In this document: positions 32,212-34,992 of the stretch, one piece after another
How the letters are laid out: each line of letters opens with the position of its first letter
Numbering within the stretch: position 1 is the first letter of the stretch
NCBI RefSeq assembly: GCF_003334385.1
Contig: NZ_QOWN01000002.1
Reading direction: 5' to 3' (one strand)
Origin: Escherichia coli
Lineage (GTDB): Bacteria > Pseudomonadota > Gammaproteobacteria > Enterobacterales > Enterobacteriaceae
DNA: 64,000 nt
The notes under the pieces: model-generated
The model's database searches: none
Seen by the model: the letters and a program-made list of their open reading frames with translations, nothing else
What the model was told of the DNA's origin: nothing
Made by a program: the position numbers and the translations under genes

Positions 32212-32479
32212 AAGCACATCCTCCGGTTATCGCATACCTTTTAAGGCCATATGCTTTTTCTGATTTCAGTATTCCCCAATCAGTGTAGTGCCTTTAAACA
32301 TAACGTGCGTAAATATATTGTCCCCGATCACACTTTTTAGTGAAAAATAAAAAACCATATTAAAAGACTTTCTCTTCCAGAACTTCTCTAACCTGTGTTA
32401 TTATTAACACAGTTAAATGTAAGCAAGGAAACTATTACAAAGTAAATATTGCGTCACTAAATGGACATTGGAGTGATAT

Positions 32480-33109
32480 ATGATTTTATTCGCCGACTAT
32501 AACACCCCTTATCTTTTCGCTATTTCCTTTGTACTGTTGATCGGCCTGTTAGAAATTTTTGCGCTTATCTGCGGTCACATGCTCTCCGGTGCTCTTGATG
32601 CACATCTTGACCATTATGATTCTATAACCACAGGTCATATTAGCCAGGCACTTCATTATCTCAATATTGGAAGATTGCCAGCTCTCGTCGTTCTCTGCTT
32701 ACTGGCTGGTTTTTTTGGTCTTATTGGCATCCTGTTGCAGCATGCCTGCATCATGGTCTGGCAATCACCACTGTCGAACCTGTTCGTGGTTCCTGTCAGT
32801 TTACTGTTTACGATTATTGCGGTGCATTATACCGGTAAAATAGTTGCGCCCTGGATTCCACGCGACCATAGTTCAGCTATTACAGAAGAAGAATATATTG
32901 GTAGCATGGCGTTAATTACCGGTCATCAAGCCACTTCAGGTAATCCCTGCGAAGGAAAACTCACCGATCAATTTGGCCAAATACATTATTTACTACTGGA
33001 GCCTGAAGAAGGAAAAATTTTCACTAAAGGAGACAAAGTGTTAATTATTTGCCGACTTTCTGCAACGCGATATTTGGCGGAAAATAATCCCTGGCCCCAA
33101 ATATTGTAA
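32480..33109 (+). CDS. yqiJ: NfeD-like inner membrane protein
   Basis: ORF track; 209 aa; TM helices + C-terminal OB-fold region. Confidence 0.85.
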
Positions 33110-33135
33110 TTTATTAATCAAAAGGAAATTTAATA

Positions 33136-34797
33136 ATGGATGATATTGTTAATTCTGTGCCCTCCTGGATGTTTACCGCAATTATTGCCGTATGCATTCT
33201 GTTTATTATTGGAATTATTTTCGCCAGGCTCTATCGTCGCGCTTCGGCAGAGCAAGCTTTTGTTCGTACTGGTTTAGGTGGGCAAAAAGTGGTAATGAGC
33301 GGTGGCGCAATCGTGATGCCGATCTTTCATGAAATAATCCCCATCAATATGAATACTCTGAAGCTGGAAGTCAGCCGCTCAACCATTGATAGCCTGATTA
33401 CGAAAGATCGTATGCGCGTCGATGTAGTAGTCGCTTTCTTTGTGCGGGTAAAACCTTCAGTAGAAGGGATTGCCACCGCTGCCCAGACGCTGGGGCAACG
33501 CACCCTGTCGCCTGAAGACTTACGTATGTTGGTTGAAGATAAATTTGTCGATGCCCTCCGTGCAACAGCTGCGCAAATGACCATGCATGAGTTACAGGAT
33601 ACCCGCGAGAACTTTGTGCAGGGGGTGCAAAATACAGTGGCAGAAGACCTGTCGAAAAACGGTCTGGAACTGGAGAGCGTTTCACTTACCAACTTTAACC
33701 AGACCTCGAAAGAACATTTCAATCCGAACAATGCCTTTGACGCCGAAGGTTTAACCAAACTGACTCAGGAAACAGAGCGCCGTCGCCGCGAACGTAACGA
33801 AGTTGAACAGGATGTAGAAGTTGCGGTGCGTGAAAAAAATCGCGATGCGCTATCGCGCAAGCTGGAGATTGAACAGCAAGAAGCGTTTATGACGCTTGAG
33901 CAGGAGCAGCAGGTTAAAACCCGTACTGCCGAACAGAATGCACGTATTGCGGCTTTTGAAGCTGAACGTCGTCGTGAAGCAGAGCAGACACGAATTCTGG
34001 CTGAACGACAGATTCAGGAAACAGAAATCGACCGCGAACAGGCCGTCCGCTCAAGAAAGGTTGAAGCTGAACGTGAAGTTCGCATTAAAGAGATCGAACA
34101 GCAGCAGGTCACCGAAATCGCTAACCAGACGAAATCGATCGCTATTGCCGCCAAATCGGAACAACAGTCCCAGGCAGAAGCGCGTGCTAATCTCGCACTT
34201 GCAGAAGCGGTAAGCGCCCAACAAAACGTAGAAACCACTCGCCAGACTGCCGAAGCCGATCGTGCTAAACAAGTTGCCCTAATCGCTGCCGCGCAGGATG
34301 CAGAAACCAAAGCGGTTGAACTGACCGTGCGGGCGAAAGCAGAAAAAGAAGCCGCAGAGATGCAGGCGGCGGCTATCGTTGAGTTAGCCGAAGCTACACG
34401 TAAAAAGGGTCTGGCGGAAGCAGAAGCACAACGTGCGCTGAACGATGCTATCAACGTACTTTCTGATGAACAAACCAGCCTTAAATTCAAACTGGCCTTG
34501 TTGCAGGCGCTGCCTGCGGTAATAGAGAAATCCGTTGAGCCGATGAAGTCAATCGACGGTATCAAGATTATTCAGGTCGATGGTCTGAATCGTGGCGGCG
34601 CTGCGGGTGATGCAAACACGGGTAATGTGGGGGGCGGAAACCTGGCGGAACAAGCATTATCAGCCGCTCTCTCTTACCGCACACAGGCACCGCTGATTGA
34701 CTCCTTGCTCAATGAAATTGGCGTTTCAGGCGGCTCACTGGCGGCATTGACTTCACCCTTAACCTCAACAACTCCCGTCGAAGAAAAAGCAGAGTAA
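33136..34797 (+). CDS. yqiK: Flotillin-like SPFH/band-7 domain protein with long Ala/Glu/Gln-rich coiled coil
   Basis: ORF track; 553 aa; N-terminal TM, SPFH domain, repetitive coiled-coil. Confidence 0.88.
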   Translation: MDDIVNSVPSWMFTAIIAVCILFIIGIIFARLYRRASAEQAFVRTGLGGQKVVMSGGAIVMPIFHEIIPINMNTLKLEVSRSTIDSLITKDRMRVDVVVAFFVRVKPSVEGIATAAQTLGQRTLSPEDLRMLVEDKFVDALRATAAQMTMHELQDTRENFVQGVQNTVAEDLSKNGLELESVSLTNFNQTSKEHFNPNNAFDAEGLTKLTQETERRRRERNEVEQDVEVAVREKNRDALSRKLEIEQQEAFMTLEQEQQVKTRTAEQNARIAAFEAERRREAEQTRILAERQIQETEIDREQAVRSRKVEAEREVRIKEIEQQQVTEIANQTKSIAIAAKSEQQSQAEARANLALAEAVSAQQNVETTRQTAEADRAKQVALIAAAQDAETKAVELTVRAKAEKEAAEMQAAAIVELAEATRKKGLAEAEAQRALNDAINVLSDEQTSLKFKLALLQALPAVIEKSVEPMKSIDGIKIIQVDGLNRGGAAGDANTGNVGGGNLAEQALSAALSYRTQAPLIDSLLNEIGVSGGSLAALTSPLTSTTPVEEKAE

Positions 34798-34992
34798 ACC
34801 CTCTTCCAGGAATAATCCCTGGCCCAAAAAGCCGGGGATTTTTTATATCTGCGTTCCGCTAAAAAGTGCAAATGATCAGGTTGTTGCAGCATTTTGCGTG
34901 ACGGCTCGGGGAAGGCAAAACTGCATCAGAGAAAGCATTGCGTGGGGTCTGGCGCTCATCAACAATCGGGGAGTCAGCAGGGGGCTGAAACG

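Follow-up and report, generated by a model that had tools for sequence, protein, structure and literature searches.

The locus yqiJ-yqiK, at positions 32480-34797 of a 64,000-nucleotide stretch of Escherichia coli DNA (contig NZ_QOWN01000002.1 of assembly GCF_003334385.1, hereafter the window), raises the question of whether a small membrane protein and a flotillin-like protein encoded side by side form an NfeD-SPFH pair and, if so, what such a pair does for the cell. An earlier note on this DNA had named the two genes yqiJ and yqiK and placed them 26 bp apart. Both the placement of the two open reading frames (ORFs) and the gap proved exact, and the names hold, with 100% identity to the annotated E. 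coli genes b3050 (yqiJ) and b3051 (yqiK) of MG1655. Taking our observations together, yqiJ and yqiK probably form a core-genome operon of E. coli that encodes a flotillin-type SPFH scaffold and its NfeD-type partner. This finding is already known and ordinary, since the pair was published in 2009, when it was assigned together with Bacillus subtilis yuaF-floT to the NfeD2-SPFH2 class (Hinderhofer et al., PMC2636767).

By using both genes as a single query of 2601 bp, we found 100% identical copies in many E. coli chromosomes, including those of the K-12 derivatives J53 and ME8067. In these identical chromosomes, yqiJ is annotated as "OB-fold-containing protein" and yqiK as "flotillin family protein". 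In 5392 of the 5426 complete E. coli genomes, the query was recovered over at least 80% of its length, and the length, conservation and annotation of both ORFs rule out a chance feature. The pairing also extends far beyond E. coli: YqiJ precedes the flotillin in 15 of the 16 related loci, among them those of distant bacteria, of viral contigs and of a jumbo phage, and by ORF coordinates the two genes are 0-72 bp apart. Eight of these loci were reached through YqiJ homologues (metagenomic L004-L008, Citrobacter rodentium L018, Salmonella L019 and Yokenella L020; L006 and L007, though one and the same place, are each counted), and all eight carry a gene with Band_7 and Flot domains directly downstream on the same strand. 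The other eight were reached through a flotillin with upstream sequence (phage Phosso and seven IMG/VR contigs), and a YqiJ-family ORF lies directly upstream in seven of them, the exception being L017, which has no recognisable YqiJ. The literature likewise treats yqiJ and yqiK as a single operon (PMC2636767, PMC13124679).

The larger protein belongs to the SPFH/Band-7 superfamily, as it has both the Band_7 domain that the earlier note had read in it and the SPFH fold (Table 1). Moreover, the order of its parts, from SPFH to long coiled coil to Flotillin domain, is that of the prokaryotic SPFH2 flotillins. A coiled coil of about 250 residues rich in Ala, Glu and Gln had been announced in the same note, and we indeed found residues 196-445 to be composed of 19% Ala, 17% Glu, 10% Gln and 10% Arg and predicted to be helical. 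In the AlphaFold (AF2) model of YqiK, built from 10 sequences with a mean predicted local distance difference test (pLDDT) score of 58.5 (62-77 in the SPFH region) and with only rough helix bounds, helices are predicted at residues 203-362 and 370-441 with low to moderate confidence. The best Foldseek matches of this model in the Protein Data Bank (PDB) were chains of the human flotillin-1/2 cage (9l3g and 9bq2; E ~1e-9, 418-467 aligned columns, 20-22% identity), followed by the SPFH domains of prohibitin, stomatin, HflK/C and vault. For the stomatin, prohibitin, HflK/C and flotillin SPFH domains, E values ran from 1e-9 to 1e-4, and TM-scores relative to isolated SPFH targets were 0.7-0.8. Since a phmmer search of the PDB sequences with YqiK returned only 1win (E 0.4) and nothing significant, it is through Foldseek, run on a low-confidence model, that YqiK is linked to flotillin cages of known structure.

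The smaller protein was analyzed together with its relatives, of which 1013 were found at E<=0.001 in a library of 1.84 billion representative proteins and 103 were aligned. Both of its Pfam families, PF21001 and PF07290 (formerly DUF1449), are present in 103/103 of the aligned homologues. The AF2 model made from this alignment (pLDDT 93) predicts helices at residues 6-30, 68-94 and 100-125 and a five-stranded barrel at residues 143-202, and by fold comparison the solved structures closest to this barrel are the C-terminal domains of NfeD proteins. As in short NfeD proteins, we found about three N-terminal hydrophobic helices, a membrane-anchored OB barrel and an adjoining, co-oriented SPFH gene; no ClpP-type serine protease domain, as carried by long NfeD proteins, was detected by Pfam in the 209 residues of YqiJ. 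Fold, architecture and gene context, the first of these read from the predicted model, therefore support the description of YqiJ as NfeD-like with a C-terminal OB fold that the earlier note had given, whereas sequence tests do not. Hinderhofer et al. drew the same conclusion in 2009 from nuclear magnetic resonance chemical shifts of the YqiJ C-terminus (PMC2636767). Within predicted transmembrane helix 1, Glu25 (32552-32554) is kept in at least 90% of the 103 family members, and the other near-invariant positions are G32, P67, F79, G83, A133, G141, D163, H169, Y170, P175 and G184.

The two proteins also appear to face the same compartment. The 103 YqiJ homologues have Lys and Arg almost exclusively in loop 1 and immediately behind transmembrane helix 3, with none in the N-terminus or in loop 2. 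This pattern fits an N-out/C-in topology, in which the OB domain would be cytoplasmic, on the same side as the SPFH domain of YqiK. From the positive cluster that follows the anchor helix, we infer that the bulk of YqiK is cytoplasmic as well, which is where published predictions place it (PMC10434171). The charge distribution thus places both soluble parts on the cytoplasmic side.

Table 1. Features of the yqiJ-yqiK locus and its downstream flank, in window positions
Feature	Position	Strand	Basis or remark
yqiJ ribosome-binding site, GGAG	32470-32473	+	6 nt ahead of the ATG; read from sequence
yqiJ coding sequence, 209 aa, ATG start	32480-33109	+	ORF; YqiJ_N membrane domain and YqiJ_OB domain
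YqiJ_N domain (PF21001), residues 8-115	within 32480-33109	+	Pfam, E 1.5e-15
Three YqiJ transmembrane helices (~8-30, 68-94, 100-125), with an acidic loop between helices 1 and 2	32501-32854	+	hydropathy; AF2 helices at pLDDT above 90
YqiJ_OB domain (PF07290), residues 139-198	within 32480-33109	+	Pfam, E 2.7e-14
YqiJ C-terminal NfeD-type OB-fold barrel, ~residues 139-205	32894-33094	+	
yqiJ-yqiK spacer, 26 bp	33110-33135	+	holds the yqiK ribosome-binding site; no + strand site in terminator scan
yqiK ribosome-binding site, AAGGA	33122-33126	+	9 nt ahead of the yqiK ATG
yqiK coding sequence, 553 aa, ATG start	33136-34797	+	ORF; flotillin-family SPFH protein
YqiK N-terminal membrane anchor, ~residues 10-33, followed by RLYRR	33163-33234	+	hydropathy peak at residues 4-36; AF2 helix 10-33
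YqiK SPFH/Band-7 domain, residues 39-192	33250-33711	+	Pfam PF01145, E 2.1e-18
YqiK long helical, coiled-coil-type stretch, ~residues 203-441, possible break at 363-369	33742-34458	+	AF2, composition
YqiK Flotillin C-terminal domain, residues 406-530	34351-34725	+	Pfam PF15975, E 6.4e-41
Hairpin and T-run resembling an intrinsic terminator	34814-34846	+	10-pair stem with 6 GC pairs, then TTTTAT; 17 nt past the yqiK stop
SIB_RNA gene	35023-35172	-	Rfam, 148 bits
SIB_RNA gene	35398-35547	-	Rfam, 142 bits

Several observations weigh against reading the locus as a scaffold operon with an NfeD partner. First, no sequence-based method stands behind the link between YqiJ and NfeD. The domain search that the earlier note had proposed as its own check finds Band_7 in YqiK but leaves the Pfam NfeD family (PF01957) without a match to YqiJ, even at E<=10; among the 103 homologues, PF01957 matched 0 at E<=0.001 and 1 at E<=0.1. 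BLASTP found no significant similarity between YqiJ and E. coli YbbJ, hhalign gave a probability of 0.9% against YbbJ alone and of 11.8% against a 14-sequence YbbJ profile, and searches of the PDB sequences with YqiJ (phmmer) or its profile (hmmsearch) returned no NfeD chain. Second, the NCBIfam equivalog model of FloT (NF058507) aligns with YqiK residues 15-490 at 86.3 bits for a cut-off of 700, so that, judged by this score, YqiK is a member of the flotillin family and not an ortholog of B. subtilis FloT. Third, the low confidence of the YqiK model makes the helix bounds, and any subunit number estimated from them, rough. Fourth, we infer the co-transcription of the two genes from the anatomy of the locus. 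Finally, YqiK fused to green fluorescent protein (GFP) was undetectable at native level and a quadruple SPFH mutant had no growth defect (PMC10434171), and detergent-resistant membranes contained no detectable YqiK (PMC6788730). Native expression of YqiK is very low, and it is for that reason that detection by GFP and in membranes failed (PMC10434171, PMC6788730).

The earlier note had remarked that the function of such pairs in E. coli is poorly defined. Neither deletion of yqiK nor the quadruple SPFH mutant produced a growth, biofilm or stress phenotype (PMC10434171). General stress (osmotic or alkaline shock) did not induce the genes, according to unpublished data quoted in PMC2636767. A 3-hydroxypropionate screen showed no effect of overexpressing or deleting yqiJK, although the genes were upregulated by NarQ, and a dependence on NarQ/NarL is reported (PMC13124679). 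A report on motility and ampicillin tolerance is cited in PMC10434171.

How a flotillin-type scaffold and an NfeD-type partner might work can be sketched from the flotillin 44-mer, HflK/C, the QmcA-YbbJ 26-mer and Staphylococcus aureus FloA-NfeD, which we used as templates. By analogy, YqiK would use its parallel helices to oligomerise, and the resulting large dome would stand on the cytoplasmic side of the inner membrane and fence a membrane patch. The helices of YqiJ would lie in or at this patch, where YqiJ may act as an integral-membrane stabiliser or adaptor, and its OB domain might bind YqiK so as to stabilise the oligomer and/or to assist in client capture. Ringed SPFH domes on membranes have been described for the flotillin 44-mer, HflK/C, the QmcA 26-mer with YbbJ, prohibitin and erlin (PMC12624060), and physical binding between NfeD and SPFH proteins has been shown for other pairs (PMC11222466; Tan et al. 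2024, as cited in PMC12624060). The NfeD of S. aureus binds its flotillin partner, and the oligomer that it stabilises retains unfolded clients independently of ATP (PMC11222466). With a published regression (subunits = 0.1782 x CC1 length + 10.22; PMC12624060), a YqiK cage would have roughly 39-53 subunits for a helix of 160 residues, or of 239 without the break, a range extrapolated from the low-confidence model. On these analogies, the role of the pair is probably the conditional management of membrane proteins or of membrane stress.

Comparison with individual systems shows how far each analogy reaches. The closest known system is B. subtilis yuaF-floT (yuaG), of whose flotillin YqiK is only a distant relative (86 vs 700 bits); compared with it, YqiJ has Pfam families of its own, PF21001 and PF07290, and E. 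coli lacks yuaI. A second SPFH/NfeD pair of the same genome, QmcA-YbbJ (SPFH1-NfeD1), likewise faces the cytoplasm, and its 26-mer was solved by cryo-electron microscopy (Tan et al. 2024, as cited in PMC12624060). YbbJ resembles YqiJ in being small, in crossing the membrane with several helices and in ending in an OB domain, but it matches Pfam NfeD whereas YqiJ does not. The gene order is reversed, with qmcA upstream and overlapping ybbJ by 4 bp, and QmcA (305 aa) has a short coiled coil compared to the ~240 helical residues of YqiK (553 aa). While yqiJ-yqiK and qmcA-ybbJ are far apart in E. coli, where the latter adjoins cueR, a yqiJ-flotillin pair of the metagenomic locus L004 (L004:5001-9927) lies at most 1.6 kb from a Band_7 plus NfeD pair resembling qmcA-ybbJ, beside a regulator of the MerR family.

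S. aureus FloA-NfeD is also an operon of a flotillin and an NfeD protein (Ukleja et al. 2024, PMC11222466) and provides the template for ATP-independent holding of unfolded membrane clients. FloA is of the short flotillin type, unlike YqiK, and while FloA-NfeD shows a strong phenotype under stress and in infection, E. coli yqiJK has no established one (PMC10434171). The human flotillin-1/2 cage (9bq2, 9l3g) shares with the YqiK model the succession of SPFH domain, long CC1 and C-terminal cap. In contrast to the anchored YqiK, human flotillins have no transmembrane helix and attach through lipidation and a hydrophobic face, and their cage is heteromeric (22+22) and without an NfeD partner.

HflK/HflC, which shares with YqiK the SPFH fold and a single N-terminal anchor and which forms a cage, opens another possibility, namely that YqiJ-YqiK regulates a membrane protease, as HflK/C does in caging FtsH or as a long, ClpP-like NfeD does in cleaving stomatin, rather than acting as a scaffold or holdase. 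Some databases do name YqiJ homologues [quoted passage not shown] (3cp0), and both QmcA-YbbJ and HflK/C were reported to interact with FtsH (PMC2636767). However, this name is an inherited annotation and not a tested function, and YqiJ, with its 209 aa, carries no Pfam protease domain. HflK/HflC is periplasm-facing, heteromeric, devoid of an NfeD partner and encloses FtsH, whereas YqiK faces the cytoplasm (PMC10434171), and the HflK/C matches to YqiK in Foldseek are the weaker ones (~2e-5). Also, no protease gene adjoins the pair, whose neighbours are glgS, ibs/sib and hldE. We consider regulation of a protease unlikely.

Somewhat less likely still is a membrane-damage module that would work with proteins of the PspA/ESCRT-III type, with a flotillin dome that would mark or stabilise membrane under stress and bring in repair factors whose genes lie elsewhere. 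Comparative genomics has found genes for Band-7 plus Flotillin proteins and for YqiJ/YuaF in operons with PspA, and the two-gene version was proposed to work with PspA encoded elsewhere (PMC11237479); in the genome of the jumbo phage Phosso, the pair is followed two genes on by a gene for a TelA-like "toxic anion resistance protein". Yet no psp gene lies near yqiJK in the window, and the lack of induction by osmotic or alkaline shock mentioned above (PMC2636767) does not favour a response to damage. Moreover, this explanation overlaps with a flotillin scaffold and NfeD partner and does not exclude it. Finally, that YqiJ is no relative of NfeD, but a small membrane protein whose barrel is a generic OB or SH3-like one and whose gene simply neighbours yqiK, is very improbable: sequence tests leave room for it, whereas fold, architecture and gene context all speak for NfeD.

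We also looked at where else the scaffold and partner genes travel together. In Sinorhizobium phage Phosso (PV764938), an isolated jumbo phage of 469 kb, the pair corresponds to genes 491-492 (L009:2293-4626), of which gene 491, annotated as hypothetical, was placed in the YqiJ family by hhalign (probability 99.85%, E 1e-30); the TelA-like gene lies two genes downstream of the pair. Six large viral contigs (L011-L016; IMG/VR, 104-543 kb) hold the pair in the same order. A scan of viral contigs with the YqiJ alignment was unusable, for it contains no conserved stretch of 7-10 columns, and the YqiK alignment was used in its place. In PHROGs, no family was found for YqiJ, YqiK or six neighbours in a phage-like JGI contig of 145 kb (L006), which is therefore unconfirmed as viral. 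In addition, Salmonella serovar Legon (AAOTGI010000020.1) carries a second yqiJ-yqiK-like pair (L019:2995-5385) about 1.1 kb from an IncFII repA, and its products are 91% (YqiK) and 64% (YqiJ) identical to those of E. coli. The proximity of repA suggests that this copy is plasmid-borne; PLSDB held no near match to it.

The partners differ markedly in conservation. Across all 11 complete pairs (L004, L006, L009, L011-L014, L016 and L018-L020), identity to the E. coli proteins was 24-74% for YqiJ and 42-93% for YqiK, and the SPFH domain of YqiK is still 68-69% identical where YqiJ is only 28-29% identical. By these identities, YqiJ diverges far faster than YqiK, at rates that are unusually unequal for presumed binding partners. 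As for base composition within E. coli, G+C content is 42.5% for yqiJ, 50.4% for yqiK and 51% for the whole window.

YqiK itself varies in length. Among the E. coli and Salmonella proteins in databases, alleles range from 518 to 575 aa at no less than 91% identity, and they differ by in-frame duplications or deletions of 2-35 residues that fall nearly all in the helical region, at about codons 254-425 (33895-34410). The changes, in residues, are +2, +/-13, -35, -30, -26, -9, -4, +5/+10, +16 and +9. No indel was found among these alleles in the SPFH and Flot domains, and outside the helical region, length differs only in that the Salmonella proteins are extended by 6 residues at their extreme C-terminus. 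A 14-nt direct repeat, TTGAAGCTGAACGT, occurs at 33956 and 34061, and its spacing of 105 nt equals the deletion in the 35-codon deletion allele. In solved SPFH cages, the number of subunits scales with the length of CC1 (PMC12624060), so that YqiK length alleles might build cages of different size. These alleles are rare: yqiK was exactly 1662 bp long in 55 of 60 evenly sampled genomes, and we therefore rejected coil-length polymorphism as a common feature.

Because the same cassette is found in jumbo phages and on the IncFII-linked contig, one may also consider yqiJ-yqiK as a mobile, size-tunable membrane-cage module, although we regard this as doubtful. The helix of the YqiK cage wall would gain and lose segments by recombination between short repeats, giving cages of different size, and phage-borne copies would remodel or protect the inner membrane of the host during infection.

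Returning to the core-genome operon, its flanks are those of MG1655, with the divergent glgS upstream and sibD/ibsD, sibE/ibsE and hldE downstream. The ibs/sib repeat that the earlier note had seen directly downstream was recovered as a pair of SIB_RNA genes, at whose positions the MG1655 record annotates ibsD/sibD and ibsE/sibE. We found a direct repeat of 157 nt (34815-34971 and 35192-35348, 92% identical), and the terminator hairpin of yqiK is the first element of unit 1 of an ibs/sib tandem repeat of ~376 bp, with a copy after ibsD at 35192-35216 (region 35192-35222). Since the hairpin opens unit 1 and recurs, the repeat boundary lies 17 nt past the yqiK stop and the duplication copied the terminator.

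Upstream, a scan for sigma-70 promoters gave no + strand candidate in the 268-bp glgS-yqiJ spacer, and weak promoter signals would fit the very low expression that has repeatedly been reported (PMC10434171, PMC6788730). The spacer contains a perfect inverted repeat at 32393-32412 (CTGTGTTA-TTAT-TAACACAG, 8+8), 68-87 nt upstream of the yqiJ start codon. This palindrome, the sole one in the spacer, may be an operator. It is partly conserved, with a TGTTA-N3-TAACA core kept in C. rodentium and absent in Yokenella. Following a hint in the literature of induction by DNA damage, we considered it as a LexA box (CTGT-N8-ACAG) and rejected this, as its spacing is N12.

Although present in nearly all genomes, the operon is dispensable and is now and then lost. 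IS1 interrupts yqiK in 2 of the 60 sampled E. coli genomes, H17 (NZ_CP073988.1) and H32 (NZ_CP042901.1). Small-colony variants adapted to macrophages acquired an IS5 insertion in yqiJ in parallel (PMC4999529), and a 13-bp frameshift in Salmonella yqiJ had no phenotype (PMC6137255). We also dropped an anti-phage defence function, since neither YqiJ nor YqiK matched any PADLOC-DB family at E<=0.01.

Together, these data add no new biology to a pair that is annotated in every E. coli genome. They do offer handles for further work, in the indels of the helical region, the fast evolution of YqiJ next to the slow evolution of YqiK, and the phage and plasmid copies. YqiK is the sole long, flotillin-type SPFH protein of E. 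coli. A structure of YqiJ-YqiK would reveal how an NfeD partner engages a cage of flotillin size, and conditional phenotypes could, in a Gram-negative model, connect bacterial flotillins with a defined process.

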